Assembly (NCBI GenBank): GCA_947259195.1
Contig: CAMYLC010000155.1
Coordinates: 16,899 to 80,898, forward strand
Origin: Thermoanaerobaculia bacterium
GTDB lineage: Bacteria; Acidobacteriota; Thermoanaerobaculia; Multivoradales; JAHEKO01
Direction of reading: 5' to 3'
Length of the DNA stretch: 64,000 nucleotides
The position numbers and the translations under genes are program-made. Position 1 is the stretch's first letter, and each line of letters opens with the position of its first letter. The notes under the pieces were generated by a model that saw only the letters and a list, made by a program, of their open reading frames with translations, ran no database searches and was not told where the DNA came from. This document shows positions 1,521 to 63,853 of the stretch, piece after piece.

Positions 1521-1536
1521 GCCCCTTCAGACTCTT

Positions 1537-13132: not shown

Positions 13133-13143
13133 GGCTCCGACAG

Positions 13144-44829: not shown

Positions 44830-44941
44830 ACCCGATCTACCTGTTGGTATGTTTGCTCGGTGGCGGGTGTCCCCTATGGTTGGATCAGAGGCTGGCCGCC
44901 TCGCATGTGTCACGGTCGGTCTGTAACGAAAGGAGGCGTCG

Positions 44942-45193: not shown

Positions 45194-45302
45194 TCTGACT
45201 GGCGGGCAACGAAGGCTCGAGCCTCACCGATGGTCTGGATCGGGATGGATCCCGGTCGGCTGCTCCTTTGTCGGGTCTCTATACGCCAGCGGAGAGAAGA
45301 GC

Positions 45303-45677: not shown

Positions 45678-45736
45678 TAGGCTCGACCGAGGCTCCCGAG
45701 TTCTCTTCCCCGAATCGACACCTGAGGATGAATCTC

Positions 45737-47434
45737 ATGAAGCGACTCCTGACACTGACGGGATGCCTCGCCTTGGCGGCTTGCAGCCTGAGCGCTGCCG
45801 ACCGGATCACGGGCAAGGCCTTCGCGACCCGCTCTGAAGTCATCGCCCGCCACGCCATGGCGGCCACCAGTCAGCCGCTGGCCACGCAGGTAGCCCTCGA
45901 TATCCTGAAACAGGGAGGCAACGCGGTCGATGCTGCCATTGCCGCCAATGCCATGCTGGGGCTCGTGGAGCCCACCGGGAACGGGATCGGCGGTGACCTC
46001 TTCGCCATCGTCTGGGATGCCGAGAGCCGAAAGCTGTATGGCCTGAATGCCAGTGGGCGCTCCCCCTTTTCGCTCACCTTGGAGTGGTTCCAGCAGCAGG
46101 GTCTGGAGTCGATACCCAGCCACGGTCCCCTGCCGGTTACCGTACCCGGAGCGGTCGACGGCTGGTTCGAGTTGCACGAGCGATTCGGCAAGCTGCCGAT
46201 GAAGCAGGTCCTGGCACCGGCGATTCGGTATGCCAAGGAGGGATTTCCGGTCAGCGAGTTGATTGCATACTACTGGCAGCGAAGTGTTCCGACGCTCGAG
46301 GTGTGGGCCGGTTTCCGAGACGTCTTCATGCCGGGAGGAGAGGCGCCATTGAAGGGAGAGATTTTTCGCAATCCGGCTCTGGCTGCGACGCTCCAGAAGA
46401 TCGCCGATGGAGGTAGGGATGTCTTCTACAAAGGCGACATCGCTCGTAGTATCGATGCCTTCATGAAGCGGCAGGGCGGCTTCCTTTCCTACAGGGATCT
46501 GGCAGAGCACTCCTCGACCTGGGTGGAGCCGGTCTCGACCGATTATCGGGGCTACGAAGTCTGGGAGCTACCCCCCAATGGTCAGGGCATCGCCGCGCTA
46601 CAGATCCTCAATATTCTCGAACACTACAACTTGTCGGACATGGGATTCGGCAGTGCCGACTACGTCCATCTCTTCGTCGAGGCCAAGAAACTCGTGTTCG
46701 AGGACAGGGCCCGCTGGTATGCGGATCCCGACTTCAACGACATCCCGGTCAGGGAGCTGATCTCGAAGGAGTATGCGTCTCGACGAAGGCAGCTCATCGA
46801 CTTGCAGCGAGCCGCAGACGCCTACGAAGCGGGTAACCCGGCCCTCGAGGAGGGCGATACCATTTACCTGACAGTCGCCGACGCGGACCGCAACATGGTC
46901 TCCCTGATCCAGTCGAATTACCGGGGCATGGGCACCGGCCTCTCGCCGGATGGCTTGGGGTTCATTCTTCAAGATCGCGGGGAGCTGTTTACGCTCGAGG
47001 AGGGGCAGCTCAACACCTATGAGCCCCACAAGCGGCCCTTTCATACGATCATCCCGGCCTTCGTCACGAAAGATGGGGAGCCCTATATGAGCTTCGGCGT
47101 GATGGGCGGTGCGACGCAACCTCAGGCTCACGCCCAGATCATCATCAACATGGTCGATTTTGGAATGAACCTGCAGGAGGCGGGAGACGCTCCGAGGATT
47201 CTGCATCAGGGCTCATCCCAGCCGACCGGCGAAACGATGCTCGACGGCGGAGCTGTCGTTCTTGAGAGCGGCTTTCCCTACGAGACGATTCGCGACCTGA
47301 TGGGACGCGGACACTCCGTGGGCTGGGACATTGGACCCTACGGCGGGTATCAGGCCATTCTCTTCGATGCCGACCAGGACGTCCTTTACGGTGCCTCCGA
47401 GTCCCGCAAGGACGGCCAGGCGGCAGGATTCTGA
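45737..47434 (+). CDS. ggt: gamma-glutamyltransferase, lipoprotein or secreted
   Basis: MKRLLTLTGCLALAAC signal/lipobox. GGT blocks GGNAVDAAIAANAMLGLVEPTGNGIGGD, the autoprocessing GDTIYL (Thr nucleophile context) and MSFGVMGG. ATG 45737 has GAGGA 8 nt upstream; ATG 45728 is the alternative. Confidence 0.9.
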   Translation: MKRLLTLTGCLALAACSLSAADRITGKAFATRSEVIARHAMAATSQPLATQVALDILKQGGNAVDAAIAANAMLGLVEPTGNGIGGDLFAIVWDAESRKLYGLNASGRSPFSLTLEWFQQQGLESIPSHGPLPVTVPGAVDGWFELHERFGKLPMKQVLAPAIRYAKEGFPVSELIAYYWQRSVPTLEVWAGFRDVFMPGGEAPLKGEIFRNPALAATLQKIADGGRDVFYKGDIARSIDAFMKRQGGFLSYRDLAEHSSTWVEPVSTDYRGYEVWELPPNGQGIAALQILNILEHYNLSDMGFGSADYVHLFVEAKKLVFEDRARWYADPDFNDIPVRELISKEYASRRRQLIDLQRAADAYEAGNPALEEGDTIYLTVADADRNMVSLIQSNYRGMGTGLSPDGLGFILQDRGELFTLEEGQLNTYEPHKRPFHTIIPAFVTKDGEPYMSFGVMGGATQPQAHAQIIINMVDFGMNLQEAGDAPRILHQGSSQPTGETMLDGGAVVLESGFPYETIRDLMGRGHSVGWDIGPYGGYQAILFDADQDVLYGASESRKDGQAAGF

Positions 47435-50713: not shown

Positions 50714-52036
50714 TCAGGCAGGCACCAGTTCGGGCTCCTTGACCGTTGCGGACTCCTTCACCACGCGCTCTTCGAGTGGCACGAACGGGCGTTTCGTTGC
50801 GCCAAGATAGATCTGGCGCGGCCGGCTGATCTTGGCCTTGGGATCGTCTCTACCCTCCTTCCACTGGGCGATCCAGCCTGGCAGGCGACCCAACGCGAAC
50901 ATGACTGTGAACATCTCCGTGGGAATGCCCATGGCGCGATAGAGGATACCGCTGTAGAAGTCCACGTTCGGGTAGAGCTTGCGCTCGACGAAGAACGGAT
51001 CTTCGAGGGCGATGCGCTCCAGGTTCTTGGCAATCTCGAGCAGCGGATCGGTCGTCCCAAGCTCAGCCAGCACGTCGGCAGCAGCCTCCTTGAGAATCGT
51101 CGCACGCGGGTCGAAGTTCTTGTAGACCCGGTGACCAAAGCCCATCAGTCGGAAGTCGGACTCGGGGTCCTTGGCCATATCGACATACTTCTGGTAATCG
51201 CCGCCGTCGGCCCGAATCTGCTCGAGCATCTCGATGACCTTCTGATTGGCGCCTCCATGCAAGGGTCCCCAAAGGGCAGAGATACCAGAGGAAATCGAGG
51301 CGAAGAGATTCGACAGACTGCTGCCGACCATCCGCACCGTCGAGGTGCTGCAATTCTGCTCATGATCCGCGTGCAGGATCAACAGGAGGTTGAGAGCGCG
51401 GTCCATGACGTCGGGCACCACATAGGGTTCCGACGGGACGGCGAACATCATGTGCAGAAAGTCCTCGGTGAAGGAGAGATCGTTGCGTGGATAGACGAAA
51501 GGCTGGCCGATTGACCTCTTGTAGGAGAACGCTGCGATGGTCTTGACCTTGGCGAGAAGCCGAATGATGTTGAGGTCTACATCTTCGTCGACTGCGCCCC
51601 TCGTGTAGTAGGCAGACAGAGAGGCCACCATGGCGGAGAGCACCATCATCGGATGTGCCGTAGGTGGGAATCCCTGGAAGAAATCCTTCATCGCCTCGTG
51701 AATCATGCTGTGGTGGGTCAACTTGTCGCTGAAGTCGCGCAACTCGTCTACGGTTGGCAGGTGCCCATAGACCAGCAGATAGCAAACTTCCGCGAAGCTC
51801 GCCGACGCGGCTATCTCCTCGATGGGATAGCCCCGGTACTGGAGGATTCCCTTCTCACCGTCGATGAAGGTGATCGTGCTGGTGCAGGAGCCCGTGTTGC
51901 CGTAACCCGGGTCGAGGCCGATTGCACCGGTGGTGTTTCGGAGCGTCGTGAAGTCGATTCCGACTTCGTCTTCCGATCCCACAAGGACGGGGAACTCGTA
52001 GTCTTGGCCGTCGAGAGACAATTTCGCTTTCTTCAT
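50714..52036 (-). CDS. gltA: citrate synthase (type II-like, 440 aa)
   Basis: ATG with GGGAGGAA upstream. Citrate synthase signature GFGHRVYKNFDPRA, with LHADHEQNCSTST and catalytic His/Asp contexts. Confidence 0.95.
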   Translation of the reverse strand: MKKAKLSLDGQDYEFPVLVGSEDEVGIDFTTLRNTTGAIGLDPGYGNTGSCTSTITFIDGEKGILQYRGYPIEEIAASASFAEVCYLLVYGHLPTVDELRDFSDKLTHHSMIHEAMKDFFQGFPPTAHPMMVLSAMVASLSAYYTRGAVDEDVDLNIIRLLAKVKTIAAFSYKRSIGQPFVYPRNDLSFTEDFLHMMFAVPSEPYVVPDVMDRALNLLLILHADHEQNCSTSTVRMVGSSLSNLFASISSGISALWGPLHGGANQKVIEMLEQIRADGGDYQKYVDMAKDPESDFRLMGFGHRVYKNFDPRATILKEAAADVLAELGTTDPLLEIAKNLERIALEDPFFVERKLYPNVDFYSGILYRAMGIPTEMFTVMFALGRLPGWIAQWKEGRDDPKAKISRPRQIYLGATKRPFVPLEERVVKESATVKEPELVPA

Positions 52037-52254: not shown

Positions 52255-52286
52255 GGTTAACTAAATGACTGGTTAACTAAATGACT
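52255..52286 (+). repeat. perfect tandem duplication of a 16-nt unit (GGTTAACTAAATGACT x2), candidate MarR operator
   Basis: Copies at 52255-52270 and 52271-52286 are identical. Each contains the palindrome GTTAAC and an ATG. The ATG of the second copy is the marR start (52281). The first opens a 3-codon mini-ORF, ATG ACT GGT TAA. Confidence 0.6.
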
Positions 52287-52916
52287 CAGGCAGGATTGGC
52301 ATCCTCGCAGAGCAGTACTCGAGTTCCGGATGGCAACGGACGCGACGAGGTCTTCCGCCTCCTGCGCTACTCGCATATCTTCGCCTCGGTCGTCCGGGAG
52401 TTCCTGGAGCTGCAGCTCCTGCATGAAGTCAGCGATGAAGATCTCTCCCTGTCGCAGCTTCATCTGCTGAAGCTGATCACGCTGGATGGCGAGCATCAGA
52501 TGGGGCAGGTAGCGGAGTTCTTGGGAATCAGCCCGCCTGCGGCGACCAAGAATATCGACAAGATGGAGCGTCTGGGACTGGTCAGTCGAATACCGTCGAC
52601 CGGCGATCGGCGAGCGACTCTCTTGCAGCCCAGTCGACAGGGACGCAAGCTGGTCAGTCGCTACGAAGCCTTGAAGGAAGACCGCCTGGCGCCGGTTCTC
52701 GAAGGCTTCAACAAAAAGGAGCTGAAGCAGATGGCAGACCTGTTGGAGCGGTTTTCACTGCGGCTCATTCACGCCCAGGAACCGATGTCACAGATCTGTC
52801 TGCGTTGTTCGGCGTATTACGACGAACACTGCCCGATCCCCCATCTCCAGAACGGCTGCCCGTACAAACAGATCAGGCAGCTCGGGGGAGCCGCACAGTG
52901 CGAAGGGGAGGGTTGA
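52281..52916 (+). CDS. MarR family transcriptional regulator with a Cys-rich C-terminal extension
   Basis: Winged-helix block LSLSQLHLLKLITLDGEHQMGQVAEFLGISPPAATKNIDKMERLGLVSRIPSTGDRRA. The C-terminal extension is CLRCSAYYDEHCPIPHLQNGC (C-x2-C-x7-C-x8-C). Confidence 0.8.
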   Translation: MTQAGLASSQSSTRVPDGNGRDEVFRLLRYSHIFASVVREFLELQLLHEVSDEDLSLSQLHLLKLITLDGEHQMGQVAEFLGISPPAATKNIDKMERLGLVSRIPSTGDRRATLLQPSRQGRKLVSRYEALKEDRLAPVLEGFNKKELKQMADLLERFSLRLIHAQEPMSQICLRCSAYYDEHCPIPHLQNGCPYKQIRQLGGAAQCEGEG

Positions 52917-52968: not shown

Positions 52969-52986
52969 GGGTGCCGAGAGGCACCT
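52969..52986 (+). promoter_or_regulatory. GNRA-loop hairpin in the marR-korD spacer
   Basis: GGGTGCC-GAGA-GGCACCT gives 6 Watson-Crick pairs plus one G-U, about 20 nt upstream of the korD start. Function unknown. Confidence 0.25.
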
Positions 52987-53006
52987 TGAAACCACGGGAG
53001 GGCGGT

Positions 53007-53327
53007 ATGAGGTATTGGCGAGATCCTCTGGATGCGGGGCAGATCGAGGCCCCCGGGGGGGATGTGCACATCCTCGCGGATCGATGCAAGGGCTGCGGGT
53101 TCTGCGTCGAGTATTGCCCCAGGCAGGTGCTCGAGATGTCCCGGGAGTTCAATCGTAAGGGCTATCACCCACCAGAGATTGTCGACAGCCGAGCCTGCGT
53201 CAACTGCGGGCTTTGCGAGATGATCTGTCCCGAGTTCGCGATCTTCTGTCTCGAGCTGGCTGCATCGACTGAGAATCCCTCGAGAGTCTTGGCATCGCCA
53301 GGTGCCGAGGCCGAGGAGGCGCGCTGA
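53007..53327 (+). CDS. korD: 2-oxoacid:ferredoxin oxidoreductase delta subunit (2x[4Fe-4S] ferredoxin)
   Basis: ATG at 53007 with GGGAGG 5 nt upstream (the track's GTG 52971 is the alternative). CKGCGFCVEYCP and CVNCGLCEMICP motifs. The stop overlaps the korA ATG (TGATG). Confidence 0.8.
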   Translation: MRYWRDPLDAGQIEAPGGDVHILADRCKGCGFCVEYCPRQVLEMSREFNRKGYHPPEIVDSRACVNCGLCEMICPEFAIFCLELAASTENPSRVLASPGAEAEEAR

Positions 53328-54484
53328 TGAAGGCCGACCCGGCAGGTGTCCTCACCGGCTCTCACTACCTCGATGGTGACTTCGCCTGTGGCGAAGGGGC
53401 CATGGCGGCGGGCTGCCGGTTCGTCGCCGGATATCCCATCACCCCATCCACTGAAGTCGTCGAGCGTATCTCCAGACGATTCCCCACGCTCGGCGGCACC
53501 TTCATCCAGATGGAGGACGAGCTGGCCAGCATGGCGGCGGTGGTGGGTGCTGCCTGGACCGGCAGCAAAACAATGACCGTGACGAGCGGTCCAGGCTTCA
53601 GCCTGATGATGGAGAATATCGGCCTCGCCGCGATGATGGAGACGCCCTGCGTTGTAGTCAACGTGCAGCGGGGTGGGCCTTCCACCGGGTTGCCGACGAT
53701 GGTTGGGCAGGGGGATGTGATGCAGGCCCGCTGGGGCTCTCACGGAGACTACGAAGTGATCGCCTTGAGCCCTCAATCGCCCCAGGAGGCCTTCGACCTC
53801 ACCATCGACGCTTTCAATCTGGCCGAGATCTACAGGGTGCCCGTCATGTTCCTCATGGACGAGTGCGTCGGTCACATGACCGAAAAGGTGGTGATTCCCG
53901 AGGCAGAGGCGATCGAGATCGAGCCGCGACGACTGACCGAGAAGTCACCGGAGAGCTTCGATCCCTATCAAGTTGAAGAGGGTCAGCTGCCCGAGTTCGC
54001 CCGTGCGGGGGACGGCTACCGGTTCCATACCACAGGCTTGACCCACGATGAGCACGGCTATCCGGAGATGAGCGTCGAATGCCAGGAGGTGAACGTCAGC
54101 CGCCTGGTCGGGAAGATCCGCGACAATGCCGACAGCATCGTCCGCTTCGAAGAGGAGGGGGTGGAGGACGCGGATGTCGTCGTAGTGTCCTACGGCATCA
54201 CCGCCAGAGTCGCCAGGCTGGCTGTCGAAGAGGCCCGTTCACAGGGCCTCAAGGTGGGCTTCCTTCGCCTGGTGGTGATCTGGCCGTTCCCGGAGAAGCG
54301 GATACGAGAGCTGGCTGGCTCCGTTGGAGCCTTTGTCGTGCCTGAGATCAATTACGGACAGATCGCTTTGGAAGTCGAGCGCGCCGCGGCTGGACAGGCC
54401 GTGACCTGGCCGGTCCACCATGCCGGCGGTGCCGTGCACTCGCCCGATGCAATCACTGAAATCATCATCAAGGCGGCCGTATGA
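53327..54484 (+). CDS. korA: 2-oxoacid:ferredoxin oxidoreductase alpha subunit
   Basis: GAMAAGCRFVAGYPITPSTEV...MEDELASMAAVVGAAWTGSKTMTVTSGPGFSLM...VVVNVQRGGPSTGLPT are the canonical OFOR alpha blocks. Confidence 0.9.
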   Translation: MKADPAGVLTGSHYLDGDFACGEGAMAAGCRFVAGYPITPSTEVVERISRRFPTLGGTFIQMEDELASMAAVVGAAWTGSKTMTVTSGPGFSLMMENIGLAAMMETPCVVVNVQRGGPSTGLPTMVGQGDVMQARWGSHGDYEVIALSPQSPQEAFDLTIDAFNLAEIYRVPVMFLMDECVGHMTEKVVIPEAEAIEIEPRRLTEKSPESFDPYQVEEGQLPEFARAGDGYRFHTTGLTHDEHGYPEMSVECQEVNVSRLVGKIRDNADSIVRFEEEGVEDADVVVVSYGITARVARLAVEEARSQGLKVGFLRLVVIWPFPEKRIRELAGSVGAFVVPEINYGQIALEVERAAAGQAVTWPVHHAGGAVHSPDAITEIIIKAAV

Positions 54485-55380
54485 CTGTGTCAACGAATCC
54501 GACTGTCGGCCAGGAAATGGAGCACCCCAGTGCTCCGCTCCTGAGGATGGAGCGCATTCCTCATGTCTGGTGCCCCAGCTGCGGCATCGGCACGGTGGTC
54601 AAGTGTTATGCCACGGCGCTCGAGCGCAGCGGAGTGGATCTCGACAAAGTCTCGGTGGTGTCGGGTATCGGCTGCTCCGGTCGCGTGGCCGGCTATCTCA
54701 AGCTGGACGGTTTTCACACCACTCATGGAAGAGCCATTCCTTTCGCCACAGGGCTCAAATTGGGACGTCCCGAGCTGCTTGTAACGGTGATCTCGGGCGA
54801 TGGCGACCTCGTAGGCATTGGCGGAAATCACTTCATTCACGCGGCGCGACGCAATCTCGACCTGCTGGTCATTCTGATCAACAACTTCATCTATGGAATG
54901 ACCGGAGGGCAGAACGCCCCGACGACGCCCCTGGGAGCCAAATCGTCGACGATGCCCTTCGGCAACTTCGAAACACCTTTCAATCTCCCGCACCTGGCAG
55001 CCTCCAGTGGTGCTTCCTATGTGGCCCGTTGGACCTGTCTGCACATACGGCGCCTGACGTGGTCGATCGAGGAGGCAATCGGCAAGAGGGGCTTCCGATT
55101 CATCGAGGCGGTAGCGCCCTGCCCGACGCTTTACGCCCGCCTGAACAAGCTGGGGAGCGGTCTCGACGCGATGCGCTTCTACCACGACACGGCCGAGATC
55201 CGGAACGGCGCCGACACCCGTGAGGTCGACGTCTCGTTCCAGAGTCCGATCATCTGCGGCAAATTCGTCGACGAGGAGCGACCGACCTTCCTCGATCTCA
55301 TGCACGACCACTACAGCAATCGGCTGGGTGATGGCTACGTCCCGATGCCACCGGAAGGGGGAATGCTCCATGAGCGGTAG
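54481..55380 (+). CDS. korB: 2-oxoacid:ferredoxin oxidoreductase beta subunit (TPP-binding)
   Basis: WCPSCGIG, GIGCSGR, and the TPP motif GDGDLVGIGGNHFIHAARRNLDLLVILINNFIYGMTGGQ. ATGA overlap with korA. Confidence 0.9.
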   Translation: MTVSTNPTVGQEMEHPSAPLLRMERIPHVWCPSCGIGTVVKCYATALERSGVDLDKVSVVSGIGCSGRVAGYLKLDGFHTTHGRAIPFATGLKLGRPELLVTVISGDGDLVGIGGNHFIHAARRNLDLLVILINNFIYGMTGGQNAPTTPLGAKSSTMPFGNFETPFNLPHLAASSGASYVARWTCLHIRRLTWSIEEAIGKRGFRFIEAVAPCPTLYARLNKLGSGLDAMRFYHDTAEIRNGADTREVDVSFQSPIICGKFVDEERPTFLDLMHDHYSNRLGDGYVPMPPEGGMLHER

Positions 55381-55963
55381 GACCGAGATCCGGATCACCG
55401 GTTTCGGCGGGCAGGGTGTCGTGCTTGCCGGTCATATCATCGGTCGCGCCTGTGCTATTCATGCCGGTCGTCAGGCCACCATGATTCAGAGCTTCGGCCC
55501 GGAGGCCAGGGGCTCGGCCTGCAGCGCAACACTCGTCGTCTCCGACCGCGAAGTCTTGTACCCCTACATCCAGCGTCCCGACATCTTTGTCGTAATGTCC
55601 GGTGAGGGCTACGAGAAGTACGGGCGAGAGCTCAAGGAAGAAGGGACCCTGGTCTTCGAACAGGATCTCGTCCATCCCAGGACGGTGGAGGGACAGAGAG
55701 CCTGCGGAGTGCCCTCTACCCGTATCGCCGAATCCCTGGGTCGAACGATTGTCCAGAACATCGTCATGGTTGGATTCTTCGCCGGCGTTACGGGCCTGGT
55801 TGCAGATGAAGCCATGCGCGATGCCGTCAGGGGTTCGGTGCCAGCAGGCACTGAAGATCTCAATCTCGAGGCCTTCGAGAAGGGCCTGGAGTACGCACGG
55901 AAGTCGCCCGGTGAGTCCTCCGTGAGCGTCTCTGAGCCGAGCCTGGAGGAGGTGAGTCCATGA
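55370..55963 (+). CDS. korC: 2-oxoacid:ferredoxin oxidoreductase gamma subunit
   Basis: ATG at 55370 (11-nt overlap with korB). IRITGFGGQGVVLAGHIIG...FGPEARGSAC is the typical gamma-subunit N-terminus. Confidence 0.85.
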   Translation: MSGRTEIRITGFGGQGVVLAGHIIGRACAIHAGRQATMIQSFGPEARGSACSATLVVSDREVLYPYIQRPDIFVVMSGEGYEKYGRELKEEGTLVFEQDLVHPRTVEGQRACGVPSTRIAESLGRTIVQNIVMVGFFAGVTGLVADEAMRDAVRGSVPAGTEDLNLEAFEKGLEYARKSPGESSVSVSEPSLEEVSP

Positions 55964-58371
55964 GAGCGCCCGTCTGCAATCTTGGAAGTGGTGCTCCCGA
56001 GCTGGCGGGTTGCAGCCTATTGATCCCTGATGTGCAGTCCGAGCCGTTGCCGATCTTGCCGGTCGAGCCGGCTCCCTGCACTCAGGCATGTCCGGCGGGA
56101 ATCAACGTCAAGGCCTACGTCTCGCTGATCGCCGAGAGCCGTTTTGCGGAAGCCCTGCAGGTTGTTCGGCAGCATTGTCCACTGCCCGGAATTTGCGGTC
56201 GGATCTGTCATCACCCCTGTGAAGCGGTCTGCCGCAGGGGAACGGTCGACGAGCCCATCGCCATCCGCGCCCTGAAGCGGTTCGTCTCCGACCTGGCGAT
56301 CGATGAGGCACCCCCTGCTGCCTGGCCGCTGGTCGACAAGGCCTCCAAGGTCGCGGTCGTGGGGTCGGGCCCAGCTGGCTTGACTGCCGCCTACGACCTG
56401 CGTCGCGCCGGGTATCCGGTCACCCTTTTCGAAGCTGAGCCGGAAGCAGGAGGCATGCTGAGGTATGGGATCACCGAGTATCGCCTGCCTCGTGATGTTC
56501 TGGATTCTGAGATCGAGTACCTCGGTGGGGTCGGTTTGGAGTTCGAGACCGGCTGTCGCGTCGGCCTCGACCTGCAGTTGGAAGAGATGCTCGAGCAGGG
56601 GTTCGTTGCCACCTTGCTGGCCGTCGGCGCTCAGCGCGGACGGCCGCTGAGAGTCCCCGGAGCAGAGTCCTGTGCGGGAGTCGAGGACGCCTTGGCTTTC
56701 TTGCGTCGCGTGAACCACGGTGACCGATCACCGGTGAAGGGTCGAGTCGTGGTGATTGGCGGTGGCTCGACGGCTGTCGAGGCGGCTCGCTCGGCACTGC
56801 GCCTGGGAGCCGAATCCGTGGACATCGTCTACCGGCGCTATCGCGAGGAGCTGTTGGCTGATGAGGAGGAGATCCGGGCAGCGGAGTCGGAAGGCATAGC
56901 ATTCAGATTCCTGGTAGCCCCTAGCCGCCTCCTCATGGGGAACGGGGCTCTTCAGGCCCTGGAGTGCGTCAGGGTCGGACTGGGCGAACCCGACGCTTCA
57001 GGCCGTCGCAGACCCATCCAGATTCCAGGCAGCGAGTTCAGGGTGGAGGCCGATCGAGTCTTGGCTGCGATCGGTCAGGCGGCCGACCTGGATTTCATGC
57101 CCGCAGAAATCCTCGAACAGCTGGCGGAGAACGAGTTGTTGCGGACCGATCCCCTGACTGCGATGACTGGCCTCCAAGGGGTGTTCGCAGCCGGAGATGC
57201 CGTCTCGGGTCCGGCAACGGTGATCGATGCGATAGCCGCCGGCCATAAGGCCGCCGAGGCGATTCATCACTATCTGAAGGAGGGGAGACCCTCGATAGCG
57301 CCGCAACCCCCGGAGATGCGCGCACCGGTGGAGTACGGCCTGCCGGATTCTCCGCCACTGACGGCGGAGAGGGGCCGACCAGAGCTTCGATGCCTGAAGT
57401 CTGGAGCGGAGTTCGCGGAGGTGGAGAGGCCTTTTGGTGAAGCCGAAGCCGTGGACGAGGCTCGACGATGTCTGCGTTGTGGACCCTGCGGCGAGTGTCG
57501 TGTCTGCGCCCCGTCCTGCCGCCGCCGCCACGTCCTGCTGAGCTTTCCGGATGCCGATGGAACGGCCAGCCGGACCCCGGTCCTGCTGCGGGCTCCAGGC
57601 AACATTGCCATGGGTTTGAGCTCTCGATCGACGGCACAGGCCCAATTGCTTCCGGAGAGCCGCCCGCGACTGCTGCGCGAGGTGTCAGCTAGCGAAGGTG
57701 ACCTCGTGGAGGTAGCCCCTTTGAGGGTTCAGATCGTCGAGGAGCAATGCCGGGGATGCGGTCGCTGCGTCGAGGTCTGTCCATTCGAGGCAATCACGAT
57801 GAGCGGTACTGAGCCGGAGGGCACAGCTCGGGTCGAACCCTCTCTCTGTCGTGGCTGCAACCTCTGCTGTGCTGTGTGTCCCACCGCGGCAGCGGAACCG
57901 AACGCCCTGTCTGTCGCTTGGTGGGGATCCAGGCTTTCCGATGCTTTCGACGGTCGGGCCGAGGCAGTCAATGATGCCGGGCCGATCGTCGTCCTGGCCT
58001 GCCAAAGGCGAGCCGGATCGGTGGAACCCACGCTCTATCAGCACTCGGCTCACGTCGAGGTGATCCGGTTCCGATGTGTCGGTCAGGTGGACGCCGGAAT
58101 GCTGGTCGAGCTCTACCGCAGAGGGGCGAGCAGTGTGGTCGTCGCTGGCTGTCAGACCGAACGATGTCGTTTCGGTGAGGGTGCCGAGCTCGCCACTGAA
58201 CAGGTGGCCAGGGCGGAACAGCTGCTCTCCCTCATGGGGGGTGGCACGCATCGTTTGAGGTCGGATTGGTCTGGAGACCGTGCCGGCGATCCCGTCGAGC
58301 GGCCGGTTTTACGCATGATTGCGGAAGTCTTCGGGGCGCGTCCGGGCCTGTCCGGGCAGCAACCCTCGTGA
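55960..58371 (+). CDS. fusion protein: GltD/NfnB-like NAD(P)H-dependent FAD/Fe-S oxidoreductase, Cys cluster, 2x[4Fe-4S] ferredoxin and a divergent MvhD-like domain
   Basis: ATGA overlap with korC. GltD-type blocks: CTQACPAGINV, GICGRICHHPCEAVC, VAVVGSGPAGLTAAYDL and AGGMLRYGITEYRLP. Then CLRCGPCGECRVCAPSC, CRGCGRCVEVCPFEAI and CRGCNLCCAVCP. The C-terminal IVVLACQ...IRFRCVGQVD...VVVAGCQTERCRF resembles MvhD. Confidence 0.8.
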   Translation: MRAPVCNLGSGAPELAGCSLLIPDVQSEPLPILPVEPAPCTQACPAGINVKAYVSLIAESRFAEALQVVRQHCPLPGICGRICHHPCEAVCRRGTVDEPIAIRALKRFVSDLAIDEAPPAAWPLVDKASKVAVVGSGPAGLTAAYDLRRAGYPVTLFEAEPEAGGMLRYGITEYRLPRDVLDSEIEYLGGVGLEFETGCRVGLDLQLEEMLEQGFVATLLAVGAQRGRPLRVPGAESCAGVEDALAFLRRVNHGDRSPVKGRVVVIGGGSTAVEAARSALRLGAESVDIVYRRYREELLADEEEIRAAESEGIAFRFLVAPSRLLMGNGALQALECVRVGLGEPDASGRRRPIQIPGSEFRVEADRVLAAIGQAADLDFMPAEILEQLAENELLRTDPLTAMTGLQGVFAAGDAVSGPATVIDAIAAGHKAAEAIHHYLKEGRPSIAPQPPEMRAPVEYGLPDSPPLTAERGRPELRCLKSGAEFAEVERPFGEAEAVDEARRCLRCGPCGECRVCAPSCRRRHVLLSFPDADGTASRTPVLLRAPGNIAMGLSSRSTAQAQLLPESRPRLLREVSASEGDLVEVAPLRVQIVEEQCRGCGRCVEVCPFEAITMSGTEPEGTARVEPSLCRGCNLCCAVCPTAAAEPNALSVAWWGSRLSDAFDGRAEAVNDAGPIVVLACQRRAGSVEPTLYQHSAHVEVIRFRCVGQVDAGMLVELYRRGASSVVVAGCQTERCRFGEGAELATEQVARAEQLLSLMGGGTHRLRSDWSGDRAGDPVERPVLRMIAEVFGARPGLSGQQPS

Positions 58372-58382
58372 GGAGTGGTGCG

Positions 58383-59573
58383 ATGAGAGACCTCATCCAG
58401 CTCAAGCAATCGACGCAAGCTGCACTCTGCCTGGAGTGCGGTAAATGCAGCACGATGTGCCCGCTGGCGCGCTTCGGAGGGTTCTCGGCGGCTCGCATGA
58501 TGTCGATCCAGGACCCGGAGGCGGAGATTGACGGCCATGCGGCCGCAGTGCAGCGTTGCCTGACTTGCGGCGCCTGTGAAGTGCGATGCCCGCAGGGTGT
58601 TCGCTACACAGAGTTCATTCTTGGATTGCGCCCCGAGCTACCCGAAAATAGCCGATGGTCGTGCCCGCATGGAGCGGTGTTTCAGGAATCGGCCCGCTGG
58701 GCTGCAGAGGGGTCGGTCAATGGCCGCAATACGGCCTGGTTGGAGGATGACCTGATAGTGGCAGAGGAGGGCGAGGTTGGGCTGTTCGTGGGTTGCCTGC
58801 CTCTTTTCGATGTGGTTTTCGGGTCCGAGCTGGACGTCCGCATGGTTGAGATTGCGCGCTCCGCCGTCAGACTGCTGAATCACCTGGGCATTGAGCCGGT
58901 GGTCGTGGCGGACGAGCGCTGTTGTGGCCATGACCTCTTGTGGAGTGGTGAAGAGGGAACGTTCGAAAAGCTGGTTGTGGCCAACACCACGGCTTTTCAA
59001 GAGCGCGGCGTTCGCCACCTCCTGACGACGTGCGCGGAGTGTTGTCGCACCTGGAGCCTCGACTACCCGCGCTATGTGGAGAGCTATCAGCCTCGAGTTC
59101 AGCACATCTCGGAGTTCCTCGCTGAGCGGGTGGAGAGCAACGAGCTGAGATTCCGGGATGTCGGGGAGAGAGGAGCCATGACATTCCACGATCCGTGCAG
59201 GCTGGGCAGGCAGCTGGGAGTCTTCGACGCTCCCAGGACGGTCATGGCCTCGCTGCCGGGAAGCGAAGTCGTGGAGATGGAGAAGTCGGGCGCCGATGCG
59301 CAGTGCTGCGGTACCCCTGGTTTCATCCAATGCAATCGAGACTCGCGACGACTTCAAGCTCAGAGATTGGAGAGTGCCGCGGCGACGGGCGCCACAAAGA
59401 TGGTAACCGCCTGTCCCAAATGTTTGATTCATTTTCGCTGTGCTCAGGCCGAGGATCGTCTCAATGAGCGGCAGGGCGCAGCCGAGCTTCAAATCGAAGA
59501 CCTCACGGTCGTCGCAGCAAGTCTGCTGATGACAAAAAGTGAAACGGAGAAGGACTTGCCGTCGAAGTCCTAG
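58383..59573 (+). CDS. heterodisulfide reductase HdrC-HdrB fusion (2x[4Fe-4S] plus two CCG domains)
   Basis: ATG at 58383 with GAGGAG upstream. HdrC-like CLECGKCSTMCP and CLTCGACEVRCP. Two CCG domains (VGC...ERCCGHD...TCAECC and DPC...AQCCGTPG...ACPKCL). Confidence 0.85.
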   Translation: MRDLIQLKQSTQAALCLECGKCSTMCPLARFGGFSAARMMSIQDPEAEIDGHAAAVQRCLTCGACEVRCPQGVRYTEFILGLRPELPENSRWSCPHGAVFQESARWAAEGSVNGRNTAWLEDDLIVAEEGEVGLFVGCLPLFDVVFGSELDVRMVEIARSAVRLLNHLGIEPVVVADERCCGHDLLWSGEEGTFEKLVVANTTAFQERGVRHLLTTCAECCRTWSLDYPRYVESYQPRVQHISEFLAERVESNELRFRDVGERGAMTFHDPCRLGRQLGVFDAPRTVMASLPGSEVVEMEKSGADAQCCGTPGFIQCNRDSRRLQAQRLESAAATGATKMVTACPKCLIHFRCAQAEDRLNERQGAAELQIEDLTVVAASLLMTKSETEKDLPSKS

Positions 59574-59588
59574 AGACAGGAGAGGTTC

Positions 59589-62069
59589 ATGACAGAGCAA
59601 GCCTTGCGTATCGGTGTCTTCGTGTGCGATTGCGGGCTGAATATCGCCGGCACAGTAGACACAGAAGAGGTTTCCCGCTTTGCCAGCGAGTTGCCCGACG
59701 TCGTGGCAGTCGTTCGCAATCGCTACACCTGTGCCGATCCGGGCCAGAAGGAAATCAAGAAGGCCGTCGCGGAGCACGATTTGAATCGAGTCGTGGTCGC
59801 ATCCTGTACCCCGAAGATCCACGAGCCTACCTTCCGTCACTGTGTGGAAGATGCCGGATTGAATCCCTATCTGGTCGAGATGGCCAATATTCGTGAACAC
59901 TGCAGCTGGGTTCATATTCATGATCGCGAGGCAGCCACCGAGAAGGCGAAAGACCTCGTGCGGAGCGCTGTCGGGCGAGCGCGGGTGTTGGAGCCCCAGG
60001 ACGAGAAGGTCTTTCCGGTGAGCGATGCGGCATTGGTCATCGGCGGGGGAGTGGCTGGCATTCAGACGGCTCTCGAGCTGGCGGATGGTGGACACCAGGT
60101 GTATTTGGTGGAAAAGGAGCCTTCCATAGGCGGGATCATGGCCGCGCTGGACAAGACCTTCCCGACCATGGACTGCTCCATATGAATTCTCGGCCCTAAA
60201 ATGATGGATGCCGGTCGGCATCCCCGCATCGAGTTACTGGTCGATTCCGAGGTCGAGGACATCACGGGCTTCGTAGGCAACTACCGAGCCCTGGTACGGC
60301 GCCGTGCACGCTTCGTCGATTCCAACGAATGTACCTCCTGTGGAGAATGCGAAAAGGTGTGCCCCGTTGTGGTTCCGGACGAGTACCAGGAAGGTCTTTC
60401 TTCGCGCAAGGCCATCTACCTACCGTTTCCACAGGCGGTGCCGTCGGCCTTCAGCCTCGACGGCGAATCCTGCCTGGGATTCAATCCGATCGCCTGTGGC
60501 AAGTGCCTGGAGGTCTGCGACAAGAAGTGCATCGACTTCGATGCCAAGGACGAGCTCATGGATCTCGAAGTGGGAACGGTCGTCGTGGCCACCGGCATGG
60601 AGGTCTACGACCCACGAGAGAACGACGAGTACGGCTACACCCGATTTCCGAACGTCGTCACCAGTATGGAATTCGAGAGACTGATCAATGCCGGCGGCCC
60701 CACCGACGGAGAGCTGGTGCGGCCTTCCGACCGGGCAGTGCCTCTGAGAGTCGGATTCGTCCAGTGTGTCGGCTCTCGATCGGTCCAACGAGGCGTGCCC
60801 TACTGCTCGAACATCTGCTGCATGAACACCATCAAGGAGACGCTGCTGTTGGCGGATCACTATCCGGAGAGTCGGTCGACGGTCTACTACATGGATATCC
60901 GGGCCTTCGGCAAGGGCTTCGAGGACCTGTATCGGCGCAGCCGCGAAGCGGGCGTGCGCTACATCAGGGGATTGCCTGGAACTGTGAAGGAGGCACCCGG
61001 TAGCAGCGATCTCATCGTCGAGGTCGAGAACACGCTGACCGGAACGATGGAGGAGCACCGGCTGGACATGCTCGTCCTGGCGGTGGGGATGGTACCGCGG
61101 CGAGCCAACGGCAACGGCAAGCGCAGCATTGACGAGATCCTGAGCCTCTCGCACACCTCCGATGGCTTTGTCATGGAGGCTCACCCCAAGCTCAAGCCGG
61201 TGGATGCCCCGACCCGTGGGGTCTATTTCGCTGGCTGCGTCGAAGCGCCCAAGGACGTCAAGGACACCGTAACACAGGCCGGGGCGGCAGCCGGAAGAGC
61301 AGCCAACCTGTTGGCTGCCGGGCAGGTTCGAATCGAGGCGATTACGGCGACCCTCGATGCGGACCGCTGTCAACTTTGCACCATCTGTGCCCGGGTCTGT
61401 CCGTTTCACGCCATCGAGCAGGCCGACAAGAAGAAAGGTCTTCTGCCGCATTTTGTGGAGGCAGCCTGCGCCGGCTGTGGCACCTGCGCGGCAGAGTGTC
61501 CTTTCGATGCCATCGACATGCGTCACTTCGCCGACCAACAGGTCCTGGCGCAGATCGACGGCATTCTGGCCGACGATCCCATGCAGAAGATTGTCGGCTT
61601 CGCCTGTAATTGGTGCTCCTACGCCGGCGGCGACAACGCAGGAACCTCGCGGCTCCAGTATCCGGCCTCCGTTCGCCTGATCCGGACCATGTGCAGTGGA
61701 CGGGTCGATCAGGCGTTCATCTGGCACGCTTTTCGGAAGGGGGCCCCTCTGGTGTTGGTGTCGGGCTGTCACTTCACAGACTGCCACTACATCGACGCCG
61801 TGACCTGGACTCAGCGCCGGATTGAGAAGATCTGGTCGAAGATGGAGAAACTCGGTATCCGCCCCGAGCGGCTGCAGTTGGAGTGGATCTCGGCGGCGGA
61901 AGGTCAGAAGTTCGCTCGCGTCATGCAGGAGCTGGACAGCATGTTGCGGCAGGTAACGGCGCAAGAGGTCGAGGAGAGCATGCAGATTCTCGCCAAGGAG
62001 TCGCTGGGAGGGAGTCCCCCCATTCTCCCGAAGAAAGGTAGAGAACAGGTTCTCCCGATCCAGAACTGA
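59589..62069 (+). CDS. hdrA: heterodisulfide reductase subunit A fused to an MvhD domain; selenocysteine (UGA) at codon 199
   Basis: Track ORFs 59589-60185 and 60201-62069 share one frame and are separated only by TGA 60183-60185. The joined sequence reads ...[63 protein letters not shown]. HdrA N-terminal Cys motif [12 protein letters not shown]. Ferredoxin motifs [24 protein letters not shown] and [13 protein letters not shown]-terminal MvhD block [15 protein letters not shown]...CSGRVD...[10 protein letters not shown]. Confidence 0.8.
60203..60230 (+). promoter_or_regulatory. candidate bacterial SECIS hairpin downstream of the hdrA UGA
   Basis: GGAUGCC (60206-60212) pairs with GGCAUCC (60217-60223) around the apical loop GGUC (60213-60216). 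A lower helix GAU (60203-60205) / AUC (60228-60230) lies across a 4-nt 3' bulge. The stem starts 21 nt after the UGA. Confidence 0.55.
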
Positions 62070-62092
62070 AGAGCTAGAGAGGAGATTCGATC

Positions 62093-62287
62093 ATGGCCAA
62101 GCAGATCAAGACTTTCTACTGTCTTCGCTGCCAGCATCGCTTTGCGATGGGCCATGACCCCAAGGAGGTGGTGGAGCGCAGCTGTCCGCAATGTGGCAGC
62201 AACAGCGTCAGATTGGAGACACCACAGGCTGCTGCCAGTCAGGCCTCTTTGGGGGCGAGCAAAACCGCAAAAGGAGGGGTTGCATGA
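62093..62287 (+). CDS. small zinc-ribbon protein (FmdB-like CxxC...CxxC)
   Basis: AGAGAGGAGA RBS. FYCLRCQHRF...CPQCGS motif pair. 64 aa. The stop overlaps the next start (ATGA). Confidence 0.6.
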   Translation: MAKQIKTFYCLRCQHRFAMGHDPKEVVERSCPQCGSNSVRLETPQAAASQASLGASKTAKGGVA

Positions 62288-62757
62288 CGACAGTGGTATC
62301 TCAACAGTGGATCGATCAGGTGCTCGAGGAACACAAACAGCTGCGGGTGATGATCGCTGAAGTACGGCAGATCCTGACCCAGCCGCGACCAGAGGCCGGT
62401 CAGCCTGGCGCCCATTCCTGGGCCGCCGATCTGTCGGTTCGCCTGGTCAAACTCCATGACGAGCTGTTTCGTCACTTTCGGTTCGAGGAATCCATGGGCC
62501 TGGTGGAGGACGTCATCGAACGACATCCCCGTGCCCTCGCCAGGTTGGAGGCGGTCGTCGGTCAGCACCCGGACATGCTTCGCGACCTCAGGTCGATCAT
62601 GACGGATGCCCTGACCTACTCAGAAGGGGAAGTGCCCGAAGATCCGCGCCTTCGGCAACGCACTTTGAACCTGCTGGACGAACTGCATCGACACGAGGTG
62701 GAGGAGACCGACCTGTTTCAACGCCTCGAGTATCGAGACCACGGTGCGATGGACTGA
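62284..62757 (+). CDS. hemerythrin-like (HHE cation-binding) domain protein
   Basis: ATG at 62284. His/Glu pattern EEHKQL..., HDELFRHFRFEE, and HRHEVEETDLF, spaced as in hemerythrin-like four-helix bundles. Confidence 0.55.
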   Translation: MTTVVSQQWIDQVLEEHKQLRVMIAEVRQILTQPRPEAGQPGAHSWAADLSVRLVKLHDELFRHFRFEESMGLVEDVIERHPRALARLEAVVGQHPDMLRDLRSIMTDALTYSEGEVPEDPRLRQRTLNLLDELHRHEVEETDLFQRLEYRDHGAMD

Positions 62758-62968: not shown

Positions 62969-63853
62969 ATGCTGACGAAGGAGCGATACGTGGACACCTT
63001 TCTGGAGCTGATACGCCGGGCCTCTGCCGAATTGCCGAGCGATGTCGTGCAGGCTCTGCAGCAGGGCAGAGACAGAGAGGCGAGCGACAGCTTGGCGCGG
63101 CAGGCTCTGGTCACGATTCTGGACAACGTCGATCTGGCCAGAGCCAAGTCAGCCCCGATTTGTCAAGACACAGGAACACCCGTTGCCTGGGTCAGCTATC
63201 CCGAGGGGACCAGCACCCGCCTGCTCGAAGAGGCCATGCACGAGGCGGTGAAGGAGGCGACTGCGAAGAGTTATCTGCGGCCGAATGCAGTCGATACGCT
63301 GACCGGCAAGAACACCGGTGATGGCGCGGGCCGAGCGATTCCTTTCCTGCATTTCGAAGAATGGGACGAGCCCAAAGTCGAGGTCAGATTGATCCTGAAG
63401 GGTGGAGGCTGCGAGAACGTGGGGGTCCAGTACAAGCTGCCTGACACCGGTCTCCAGGCGGGACGCGATCTGGAAGGTGTCCGTCGCGTTGTCTTGGACG
63501 CGGTGGTTCAGGCGCAGGGGAAGGGTTGCGCGCCCGGCGTTCTGGGTATTTGTATTGGGGGCGACAGGGTTTCCGGATTCTCGGAATCGAAATGTCAGCT
63601 ATTGCGGCCCCTATCGGACACCAATCCCATGGCGGAGTTGGCCGAGTTGGAGGAGCGATTGCTGAAGGAGGCCAACGAGTTGGGGATCGGCCCGATGGGA
63701 TTCGGCGGGAAAACCACGGTTCTTGGAGTCAAAGTCGGTGTGCTGGACCGACTGCCAGCTTCGTACTTCGTGACCATCAGCTACATGTGTTGGGCTGATC
63801 GGCGCGCTGCCGTCAGTCTCGATGAGGAAGGAGCGGCGACATGGCTGAACTGA
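62969..63853 (+). CDS. class I (Fe-S) fumarate hydratase / tartrate dehydratase, alpha subunit
   Basis: GAAGGAG RBS. PICQDTGT motif and GGGCENV, typical of Fe-S hydro-lyase alpha domains. Confidence 0.85.
   Translation: MLTKERYVDTFLELIRRASAELPSDVVQALQQGRDREASDSLARQALVTILDNVDLARAKSAPICQDTGTPVAWVSYPEGTSTRLLEEAMHEAVKEATAKSYLRPNAVDTLTGKNTGDGAGRAIPFLHFEEWDEPKVEVRLILKGGGCENVGVQYKLPDTGLQAGRDLEGVRRVVLDAVVQAQGKGCAPGVLGICIGGDRVSGFSESKCQLLRPLSDTNPMAELAELEERLLKEANELGIGPMGFGGKTTVLGVKVGVLDRLPASYFVTISYMCWADRRAAVSLDEEGAATWLN

Follow-up and report, generated by a model that had tools for sequence, protein, structure and literature searches.

The closest precedent found for a 2-oxoacid:ferredoxin oxidoreductase (OFOR, encoded by kor genes) set among heterodisulfide reductase (Hdr) genes comes from tubeworm symbionts; the coupling in their Hdr-Flx-KorABCD-TfrAB cluster is itself a hypothesis resting on transcript data. 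In the tubeworm symbionts (Ca. Endoriftia, Escarpia symbiont) and in Thioflavicoccus mobilis, the reductive tricarboxylic acid (rTCA) cycle cluster reads tfrAB-hdrCB-korDABC-hdrA-flxDCBA-aclBA (PMC6315080, PMC11636981), and the authors proposed that NAD(P)H electrons are bifurcated directly to 2-oxoglutarate:ferredoxin oxidoreductase (OGOR) and a high-potential branch (Rubin-Blum 2019, PMC6315080; Mitchell 2024, PMC11636981). Operon-like co-expression of the Endoriftia Hdr-Flx-KorABCD cluster was reported by Mitchell et al. (PMC11636981), and a 2026 survey recorded no such complex in other autotrophs using the rTCA or reversed oxidative TCA cycle (PMC13147460). Here, we describe a related arrangement in a 64,000-nucleotide stretch from a Thermoanaerobaculia bacterium (contig CAMYLC010000155.1, positions 16,899 to 80,898; hereafter the window), in which korDABC is followed by the gene for an 803-aa GltD/NfnB-like–FeS–MvhD fusion, here labelled G5, by an HdrC/HdrB-like fusion gene (hdrCB) and by hdrA.

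We somewhat favor the reading that this conserved operon encodes a soluble cytoplasmic redox system in which KorDABC, acting as an OGOR, is functionally coupled to an NADPH-linked, HdrA-type flavin-based bifurcating module; the coupling is probably also physical. An earlier note on this DNA had proposed a candidate electron-bifurcating complex tied to 2-oxoacid oxidation or synthesis, and the proposal stands as a candidate, given the identities of the modules and their retained linkage. The same note left open whether the arrangement had already been described: a related Kor-in-Hdr arrangement with Flx is known from the tubeworm symbionts (PMC6315080, PMC11636981), whereas no description of this exact one was found in the literature searched, the coverage of which was incomplete. 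The concept of Kor–Hdr coupling is not unprecedented, and the window cluster shares the idea but not the parts with the tubeworm cluster.

The core genes and sites of the cluster are as follows.

53007-53327 (+): korD, delta subunit, 2 x [4Fe-4S] ferredoxin-like (Pfam Fer4/Fer4_7)
53327-54484 (+): korA, alpha subunit (Pfam POR_N 244 bits, PFOR_II)
54481-55380 (+): korB, beta subunit, binding thiamine pyrophosphate (TPP) (Pfam TPP_enzyme_C 105 bits)
55370-55963 (+): korC, gamma subunit (Pfam POR 115 bits)
55960-58371 (+): G5, 803 aa (Pfam Fer4_20, Pyr_redox_2, Fer4_21, FlpD)
58383-59573 (+): hdrCB, HdrC/HdrB-like fusion of the HdrD/TfrB/GlpC type, 396 aa (Pfam CCG 95 bits in two stretches, Fer4_8)
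59589-62069 (+): hdrA, HdrA2-type HdrA-MvhD fusion, predicted 826-aa selenoprotein (U199)
60183-60185 (+): in-frame UGA in hdrA, motif DCSI-U-ILGPK
60206-60223 (+): hairpin GGAUGCC-GGUC-GGCAUCC, of the selenocysteine insertion sequence (SECIS) type

Comparison with described systems

In both the tubeworm and the window cluster, korDABC lies amid hdr genes of the same strand, a module of the pyridine-nucleotide dehydrogenase type carries an MvhD-type connector, and TCA genes adjoin. Each also has an accessory gene related to oxygen, for rubrerythrin in the tubeworm symbionts and for hemerythrin in the window. The input module FlxABCD consists of four proteins in the tubeworm cluster, whereas a single NfnB/GltD-like–ferredoxin–MvhD fusion takes this place in the window. 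The tubeworm cluster encodes HdrB and HdrC as two proteins and has tfrAB and aclAB beside it, whereas the window has a fused HdrCB and neither of those gene pairs. The gene orders are hdrCB-kor-hdrA-flx and kor-G5-hdrCB-hdrA, respectively. The hosts differ as well, being autotrophic Gammaproteobacteria in the former case and mostly heterotrophic Acidobacteriota, Planctomycetota, Marinimicrobia and others in the latter.

The HdrA of the window cluster is of the HdrA2 type and predicted to contain selenocysteine (Sec). In HdrA2B2C2 of Methanosarcina acetivorans, a ferredoxin-linked bifurcating enzyme, HdrA is fused to MvhD, and bacterial homologues were noted by the authors (Yan, Wang & Ferry 2017, PMC5296606). 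The HdrA fragments of the window span the NCBIfam HdrA2 model end to end; unlike the window system, however, the archaeal enzyme has F420H2 as donor, CoM-S-S-CoB as acceptor, separate canonical HdrB2 and HdrC2, and no Kor or NfnB-like partner. Methanogen Hdr-Fmd/Fwd supercomplexes deliver the low-potential branch directly to a CO2-fixing enzyme via ferredoxin-like domains (PMC13518236, PMC13580544). The window HdrA resembles that of MvhAGD-HdrABC and Hdr-(Vhu/Fdh)-Fmd/Fwd (PDB 5ODC, 7BKB, 8RVU) over 650 residues, in the Sec/Cys197 position and in the MvhD connector to the bifurcating FAD. The methanogen complexes differ in their hydrogenase or formate dehydrogenase input, formylmethanofuran dehydrogenase partner, known heterodisulfide substrate and archaeal SECIS/Sec system.

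According to the summary given in PMC6315080, Desulfovibrio FlxABCD-HdrABC (Ramos 2015) is a soluble Hdr-type system that depends on NAD(P)H and operates in both directions in vivo; bifurcation to ferredoxin and to a protein disulfide has been proposed for it. As summarised there, it differs from the window cluster in its Flx input, its DsrC acceptor and its tie to alcohol dehydrogenase rather than to an OFOR. The window cluster falls outside FlxABCD-HdrABC because the FlxA-D subunits are absent, although it may work like Flx-Hdr.

The N-terminal half of G5 shares two [4Fe-4S] clusters, FAD and an NADPH site with NfnAB (4YLF, 5JCA), StnC (8OH5) and NfnA of Nfn-Bfu (9N5U), all of which come from bifurcating or transhydrogenase complexes. 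In contrast to these modules, G5 adds a Cys-rich motif, a 2x[4Fe-4S] domain and MvhD, and has no NfnA- or Bfu-type partner. The soluble NADH-dependent fumarate reductase FrdABCDE of Hydrogenobacter thermophilus reportedly carries GltD-like and HdrB/C-like extra subunits; its catalytic partner is said to be FrdAB rather than Kor, with no HdrA and no Sec. If so, in this TCA-cycle enzyme a GltD-like and a CCG module would be joined in a single complex that needs no free thiol substrate.

Cluster organization and module assignment

The genes overlap or nearly abut. The korD/korA overlap is 1 nt (TGATG), korA/korB and korC/G5 share 4-nt ATGA overlaps, and korB/korC overlap by 11 nt. Gaps of 11 nt (G5-hdrCB, ribosome-binding site GAGGAG before hdrCB), 15 nt (hdrCB-hdrA, ribosome-binding site AGGAGAGG before hdrA) and 23 nt (hdrA to a small zinc-ribbon gene) follow, and the zinc-ribbon gene meets the subsequent hemerythrin-like gene in another ATGA overlap. 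Shine-Dalgarno sites lie in front of the non-overlapping starts of the cluster. Checked against open reading frame (ORF) lists and the raw sequence, the junctions in the earlier note proved exact; its GTG start for korD at 52971 is an upstream in-frame alternative, the ATG at 53007 lying behind the Shine-Dalgarno sequence GGGAGGG and the gene call of a close relative (locus L001) giving 107 aa. No membrane-spanning segments were found in any cluster product. A promoter/terminator consensus scan within the cluster gave counts equal to the shuffle expectation and has no bearing on whether the genes form a single transcript.

Profile searches of each ORF (Pfam, NCBIfam) and matches to PDB sequences bore out the four modules named in the earlier note (a four-subunit OFOR, an NfnB/GltD-type NAD(P)H:FAD module, HdrA, and an HdrC- plus HdrB-type part with two CCG domains) as well as its two MvhD-type domains, one in G5 and one in HdrA. 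Its statement that the window lacks Mvh hydrogenase, formate dehydrogenase, Flx, MetFV, DsrC, LbpA and Qmo agrees with the ORF set of all 64 kb, in which none of these was found.

The korDABC genes are predicted to encode, together, all four subunits of a 2-oxoacid:ferredoxin oxidoreductase of the KorDABC/OorDABC type. KorA passed the NCBIfam model for the alpha subunit of 2-oxoacid:acceptor oxidoreductases (NF006412; 558 bits, cut-off 411), with 1yd7, 8ys5 (2-oxoglutarate synthase) and 6n2n (Magnetococcus OGOR, MmOGOR) as its best PDB-sequence matches. The best NCBIfam model of KorB was the 2-oxoglutarate ferredoxin oxidoreductase beta subunit (227 bits, below the cut-off of 364) and that of KorD was OGOR_delta (73 bits, below 125); KorC scored 201 bits against NF006323 (below 235). 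From the TCA-gene context and the best matches of KorA, KorB and KorD, we infer that 2-oxoglutarate is the substrate.

G5 comprises an NfnB/GltD-like region with 2x[4Fe-4S], FAD and NAD(P)H sites (aa 38-440), a Cys-rich motif (aa 504-520), a 2x[4Fe-4S] ferredoxin domain (aa 590-645) and an MvhD [2Fe-2S] domain (aa 693-781). Its N-terminal half is predicted to be an NfnB/GltD-like NADPH:FAD Fe-S flavoprotein, with Fer4_20 (69 bits) ahead of Rossmann folds for FAD and NAD(P)H (Pyr_redox_2, 98 bits). Among PDB sequences, the N-terminal ~440 residues were closest to StnC 8oh5_C/9bov_A, NfnA 9n5u (Nfn-Bfu) and NfnB 4ylf_B/5jca_L, at 295-379 bits (295 bits for 4ylf_B). The motifs GSGPAG, GGGSTAVEAAR and YRR were invariant across 20 homologues, and the Cys-rich motif, CxxCxxCxxCxxCxxxC, is invariant too. 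The NfnB/GltD/StnC-type relatives together with the invariant YRR motif suggest that the pyridine nucleotide would be NADPH and not NADH. The C-terminal ferredoxin and MvhD module of HdrA has a homologue in the last ~200 residues of G5 (BLASTP E 2e-17; 96 bits for G5 against the HdrA2 model), and the C-terminal third of G5 appears to be a copy of the HdrA2 ferredoxin-MvhD connector. Two putative Kor-G5 "Rosetta stone" fusions, picked out by database name and Pfam tag (P0041, P0113), both turned out to be ordinary G5 proteins of ~800 aa, with no fusion.

The hdrCB product joins an HdrC-like 2x[4Fe-4S] domain to two CCG domains, with all motifs present. Among NCBIfam models, it came closest to thiol:fumarate reductase TfrB, in the C-terminal part, and at 147 bits stayed under the cut-off of 385; its best PDB-sequence match was 9ojn_A, an "iron-sulfur-binding reductase" (E 4e-25). 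Across 12 orthologues, 8/8 ferredoxin Cys and 5/5 Cys of the second CCG domain (CCG2) were invariant. Methanogen HdrB/HdrC are not its orthologues, and the protein is best described as a predicted HdrD/TfrB/GlpC-like CCG protein outside strict HdrBC membership.

Selenocysteine in HdrA

Mechanical ORF finding cut hdrA into pieces of 198 and 622 aa, which lie in the same frame with one TGA (60183-60185) between them. The N-terminal ORF matched positions 1-192 of the HdrA2 model (NCBIfam NF040770) at 312 bits and the C-terminal ORF positions 194-776 at 811 bits, leaving only one model position unmatched between them; the cut-off of this model is 1100 bits, and the two fragments were scored apart owing to the UGA. 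Once Cys was substituted for the stop, residues 6-662 aligned to Methanothermobacter wolfeii HdrA (5odc_A; 771 bits, E 1e-230), and the C-terminus of the protein matched MvhD 5odc_D (E 4e-39) and Pfam FlpD (152 bits). With an FAD domain, N-terminal and inserted Fe-S domains, the Cys/Sec197 site and a C-terminal MvhD, the protein has the features of a bona fide HdrA/HdrA2 member. U199 aligns to Cys197 of M. wolfeii HdrA, the site at which Methanococcus maripaludis HdrA has Sec197 (PMC13518236), and HdrA is an established bacterial selenoprotein family (PMC1794560). We therefore read hdrA as one predicted Sec-containing gene, in which UGA is decoded as selenocysteine.

Comparative data were consistent with this assignment. 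The TGA was found at the U199 codon in every kor-linked orthologue retrieved (>30 loci), whereas 18/19 HdrA(-like) copies away from kor-linked clusters had TGT/TGC (TGA in L063). That the kor-linked HdrA clade appears to be uniformly Sec-containing is a new point. The 7-bp stem of the SECIS-type hairpin begins 21 nt past the UGA, and its GGUC loop is invariant. In 23 sequences, 98.8% of stem cells were paired, compared to 27-58% in slid controls, and 0/500 shuffles reached the observed value. Covariation from C:G to U:A was observed in 10/23 sequences, an Ala-to-Val change being offset by a synonymous codon change for Arg. The single-sequence fold of this region was unremarkable (z-score -0.87), and the comparative test was decisive.

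If TGA 60183 were instead a true stop, HdrA would consist of two polypeptides (198 and 622 aa) or the locus would be a pseudogene. Such a reading could draw on the splitting of hdrA by mechanical ORF calling and by most gene callers, on an ATG 15 nt past the TGA, and on the window itself, in the 64 kb of which neither selA, selB, selC or selD nor a tRNA-Sec was found. However, the ATG has no ribosome-binding site, and the five codons from TGA to ATG (ILGPK) are conserved and carry on the HdrA motif. The position of the TGA on the known Sec site of an established selenoprotein family, its retention among orthologues and the covarying hairpin likewise speak against a stop. Moreover, NCBI annotates a single 817-aa hdrA coding sequence in L003 and L004, and in a Marinimicrobia metagenome-assembled genome (MAG), a gene ~5 kb upstream of the cluster (L019, 1650-2691, +) encodes a SelD that itself contains Sec (AIRS/AIRS_C; in-frame TGA, SG-U-ACK). 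We give the true-stop reading next to no credence.

Each of the 120 database entries most similar to the C-terminal fragment was 567-665 aa long and began just past the UGA codon, which indicates that gene callers broke them at the same place. These C-terminal fragments (P0122, P0230 and ~120 others) are annotated separately, as "hydrogenase iron-sulfur subunit" or "heterodisulfide reductase subunit A". A search of the whole window with Rfam at gathering thresholds returned no family, no tRNA-Sec and no riboswitch. A 95-nt "tRNA-His (gtg)" called by ARAGORN at 39931-40025 (-), suspected to be a tRNA-Sec, had no Rfam match even at E<=1 and is almost certainly a false positive.

Conservation of the gene order

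Full-length G5 homologues formed at least 120 clusters at 90% identity and were 53-92% identical to the window protein. A G5 profile scan of one genome per GTDB species gave 84 loci (L numbers), on which the window proteins were placed by tblastn; 28 species-level loci had a full-length G5, and neighbors were counted only at loci with enough flank. The contigs of three G5 homologues, from three additional lineages, were inspected individually.

The korA and korB genes lay directly upstream of full-length G5 at 21/21 loci, with hdrCB downstream at 21/23 and Sec-hdrA downstream at 18/18. Gene order and strand were constant among these loci, usually with the small Zn-ribbon gene next, and korC always abutted G5, the ATGA overlap between the two being kept across phyla. 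The host lineages were Acidobacteriota/Thermoanaerobaculia, Phycisphaerae/Planctomycetota, Eisenbacteria, Marinimicrobia/Fidelibacterota and Zixibacteria; the window was 86-95% identical to Acidobacteriota/Thermoanaerobaculia MAGs. Variants occurred in Anaerolineae (L033, L034, L036, L054, L060) and in Zodletone "Deltaproteobacteria" MAGs (L066, L079), in which korDABC is followed by a larger HdrL-like fusion whose NfnB-like module is flanked by HdrA-like segments; in L036, L066 and L079, hdrCB and Sec-hdrA lie farther downstream. Judged from these loci, the cluster is conserved across at least seven bacterial phyla, and the kor-G5-hdrCB-hdrA linkage that had been proposed from the window is retained in its orthologous clusters.

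Loci with only the GltD part of G5 behaved differently: 45/52 were without kor, 41 of these having enough upstream sequence to judge. Between phyla, HdrA and KorA/KorB were 62-80% identical, compared to 32-60% for G5 and HdrCB; between Acidobacteriota and Marinimicrobia, the values were 62-65% for HdrA and 38-40% for G5.

Co-location of the TCA and Hdr genes through chance, or through a purely regulatory juxtaposition with no functional link, would have to produce the same order and strand in ~28 species of several phyla whose flanking genes differ, and we consider this very improbable. Recurrence on this scale lies far beyond chance.

Proposed mechanism and alternatives

In the proposed mechanism, hydride would be exchanged between NADPH and the FAD of the NfnB/GltD-like domain of G5, and electrons would pass via the G5 Fe-S clusters and the C-terminal MvhD [2Fe-2S] cluster to the FAD of Sec-HdrA. 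The G5 flavoprotein, with its own MvhD, would thereby stand in for MvhAG plus MvhD or for FlxABCD as the input module. At the HdrA FAD, the pair would be split. The high-potential branch would run through the HdrA clusters and the HdrC-like 2x[4Fe-4S] domain to the CCG noncubane clusters and an acceptor there, most likely a disulfide, whereas the low-potential branch would run from the ferredoxin-like domain of HdrA to KorD and on to KorB and TPP. The net reaction, which would be reversible, is 2 NADPH + X-S-S-X + succinyl-CoA + CO2 <-> 2 NADP+ + 2 X-SH + 2-oxoglutarate + CoA. Bifurcation, docking of Kor and a disulfide as the substrate at the CCG site are the predicted elements of this scheme.

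For the direction in vivo, NADPH-driven bifurcation with Kor as a 2-oxoglutarate synthase has an even chance or slightly better, and confurcation in the oxidative direction, in which electrons of 2-oxoglutarate would be passed to NADPH, takes the remainder. The former is favored by the analogy with Endoriftia, the canonical direction of HdrA and the energetic need of carboxylation; the latter is favored by heterotrophic hosts, a context of citrate synthase, malate dehydrogenase, isocitrate dehydrogenase and glutamate dehydrogenase genes, peptidases, and an ADP-forming acyl-CoA synthetase.

Several observations weigh against the coupled, bifurcating OGOR. KorB, KorC and KorD all fell short of the OGOR equivalog cut-offs. 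HdrCB scored only 33 bits against the HdrC model TIGR03290 (cut-off 160) and was matched by methanogen HdrC/HdrB at 1e-6 to 1e-3 only; its first CCG domain (CCG1) keeps 4/5 Cys invariant across the 12 orthologues, the fifth varying; and no gene for a thiol carrier (DsrC, LbpA, TusA) was found in the 64-kb window. Because of this distant kinship, the varying fifth Cys and the absence of a thiol carrier nearby, the high-potential substrate of the CCG site may not be a disulfide. No ATP-citrate lyase was seen near any locus, which, with hosts that look heterotrophic, weakens the carboxylating direction. Four-subunit OFORs normally use free ferredoxin, so physical docking is not required. Two loci also depart from the pattern: at L016 (390-7910), an M1-type peptidase gene comes after korDABC-G5 and no hdr gene lies within 2.3 kb, whilst at L012 (745-3018, Planctomycetota), a stand-alone G5 lies next to leuS.

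The L016 locus suggests that Kor plus G5 may be a functional unit alone. Accordingly, G5 could serve as the NADP+-reducing subunit of Kor in a non-bifurcating, NADP+-dependent 2-oxoglutarate dehydrogenase, with HdrA and HdrCB as an alternative exit or entry wire (e.g. for ferredoxin-level electrons to a disulfide) and no energetic coupling. The constant abutment of korC and G5 would also suit such an enzyme. Phenylglyoxylate:NAD+ oxidoreductase (PadEFGHI) consists of an OFOR core and an NAD-reducing subunit. In addition, HdrA2B2C2 of M. acetivorans runs non-bifurcating Fdx:CoMS-SCoB and Fdx:F420 reactions (PMC5296606). However, hdrCB and Sec-hdrA accompany kor-G5 at nearly all and all informative species, respectively (21/23 and 18/18), and HdrA is strongly constrained between Acidobacteriota and Marinimicrobia compared to G5. 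HdrA also keeps the full cofactor set of bifurcating HdrA and thus more than a plain ferredoxin:NADP+ reductase would need. We regard the non-bifurcating enzyme as improbable.

A further alternative retains bifurcation without a supercomplex: an ordinary OGOR and an independent G5-HdrCB-HdrA enzyme that bifurcates from NADPH to ferredoxin and a disulfide would be two separate enzymes of one regulon, linked via soluble ferredoxin. KorDABC has the standard four-subunit build, with KorD as the usual ferredoxin-docking subunit, and in some relatives small ferredoxin genes adjoin the cluster (downstream in L002, for a Fer4_13 protein of 74 aa, and in L004, for a ferredoxin of 68 aa); the Desulfovibrio FlxABCD-HdrABC system, as summarised in PMC6315080, uses free ferredoxin. 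By contrast, no ferredoxin gene is present in the operon of the window, the strict gene order and the korC/G5 ATGA overlap are conserved across phyla, and direct channelling exists in methanogen Hdr-Fmd complexes. Two separate enzymes are a tentative alternative and, on balance, an unlikely one.

Within the coupled reading that we favor, the most far-reaching form has Kor docked on HdrA as a bacterial counterpart of the methanogen Hdr-Fmd supercomplex, Se-dependent and NADPH-driven, with low-potential electrons channelled into succinyl-CoA carboxylation without free ferredoxin. This form is possible, if doubtful.

Regulator and neighboring genes

The genes that flank the core of the cluster are as follows.

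50714-52036 (-): citrate synthase, divergent from marR (Pfam Citrate_synt 455 bits)
52281-52916 (+): marR (Pfam MarR 51 bits)
62093-62287 (+): zinc-ribbon gene (CxxC...CPxCG), 64 aa (Pfam Zn_ribbon_8 23 bits, below gathering)
62284-62757 (+): hemerythrin-like gene, 157 aa (Pfam Hemerythrin 31 bits)
62969-63853 (+): class I fumarate hydratase alpha subunit, 211 nt 3' of the cluster (Pfam Fumerase 260 bits)

At loci of Acidobacteriota, Thermoanaerobaculia and Phycisphaerae, marR lies directly upstream of korD and thus appears to belong to the conserved unit. The genes listed in the earlier note all hold, but it overlooked this conserved marR as well as the selenocysteine of hdrA. The MarR protein ends in a CxxC-x7-C-x8-CPY motif (residues ~173-195), whose four Cys were kept in 8/8 aligned orthologues; this tail may be a redox, metal or Fe-S sensor governing the kor-hdr operon and the divergent citrate synthase gene. 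Between marR and korD lies a perfect palindrome, GGTGCC-GAGA-GGCACC (52970-52985), which could be an operator or an RNA hairpin. L001, the closest relative, has kept it and L005 has a degraded version; in more distant loci it is unalignable.

The Zn-ribbon gene gave tblastn matches at the same position in most loci and was gene-called with Zn_ribbon_8 in L002 and L004. Only the first ~40 residues of its product are conserved across phyla, and the Cys arrangement also resembles rubredoxin knuckles; the protein could act in assembly, as a redox partner or as a subunit. The hemerythrin gene was found only at Acidobacteriota/Thermoanaerobaculia loci, as a lineage-specific accessory.

Citrate synthase occupies the same position in L001, L005 and L013, and in L001 the fumarase alpha gene is followed by a Fumerase_C gene. 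TCA-related neighbors recur elsewhere: L019 has citrate synthase and malate dehydrogenase, L004 has citrate lyase and isocitrate dehydrogenase, and L001 has glutamate dehydrogenase. A candidate ATP-citrate lyase beside a Marinimicrobia cluster, raised by a weak citrate-synthase-like match, proved to be plain citrate synthase followed by malate dehydrogenase. At five Marinimicrobia loci (L018, L023, L025, L026, L031; ~400-3500, minus strand), a second korAB of the dimeric type (30-44% identity) lies divergently upstream of the cluster, in some cases together with fumarase, and mirrors the two OGOR isoenzymes of the tubeworm symbionts.

Elsewhere in the window, an ORF at 36791-39031 (+) encodes an ADP-forming acyl-CoA synthetase-type protein (ATP-grasp_5 + CoA_binding_2 + Succ_CoA_lig), for which a step from succinyl- or acetyl-CoA to ATP, compatible with oxidative use of Kor, is possible. 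Peptidases (M16, M1, S9/S33-like, M24), a gamma-glutamyltranspeptidase and a Na+:alanine symporter are encoded at 1537-4404, 13012-15312, 28026-28829, 31306-32694, 45230-47434 and 11680-13029, and this content suggests a peptide- and amino-acid-degrading heterotroph. An ORF for a CMD/AhpD-like protein of the CxxC peroxidase family (44844-45677, +) overlaps the start of the gamma-glutamyltranspeptidase ORF (45230-47434, +), which has an N-terminal extension of ~220 residues. The starts of these two ORFs were probably mis-set by mechanical calling; the equivalents in L001 are a CMD gene of 124+ aa and a 565-aa gamma-glutamyltranspeptidase gene.

Implications

Where cells obtain the very low-potential electrons for 2-oxoacid:ferredoxin oxidoreductases, or how they dispose of them, is an open question; for the rTCA cycle, a 2023 study of Aquifex stated that the supply of reduced ferredoxin "is still unresolved" (PMC10052474). 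In the operon described here, a putative OGOR is tied to an HdrA module linked to NADPH. Should the two prove to be coupled, this would answer the question directly, and in a testable way, for many uncultured lineages that are abundant in soils, sediments and oxygen-minimum zones, and would extend Hdr-type bifurcation beyond methanogenesis and sulfur metabolism to the central TCA cycle. These lineages would then need selenium for their central carbon metabolism. Annotation consistently splits the HdrA of this family, in error, into two genes, of which the N-terminal one is left unnamed, and metabolic reconstructions of MAGs will therefore miss or misread it.

If Kor docks on HdrA, the high-potential branch would reduce a novel thiol/disulfide couple, and "heterotrophic" Acidobacteriota, Marinimicrobia, Planctomycetota, Zixibacteria and others would possess a hidden OGOR step run on NADPH, and perhaps also a reversed oxidative TCA cycle.

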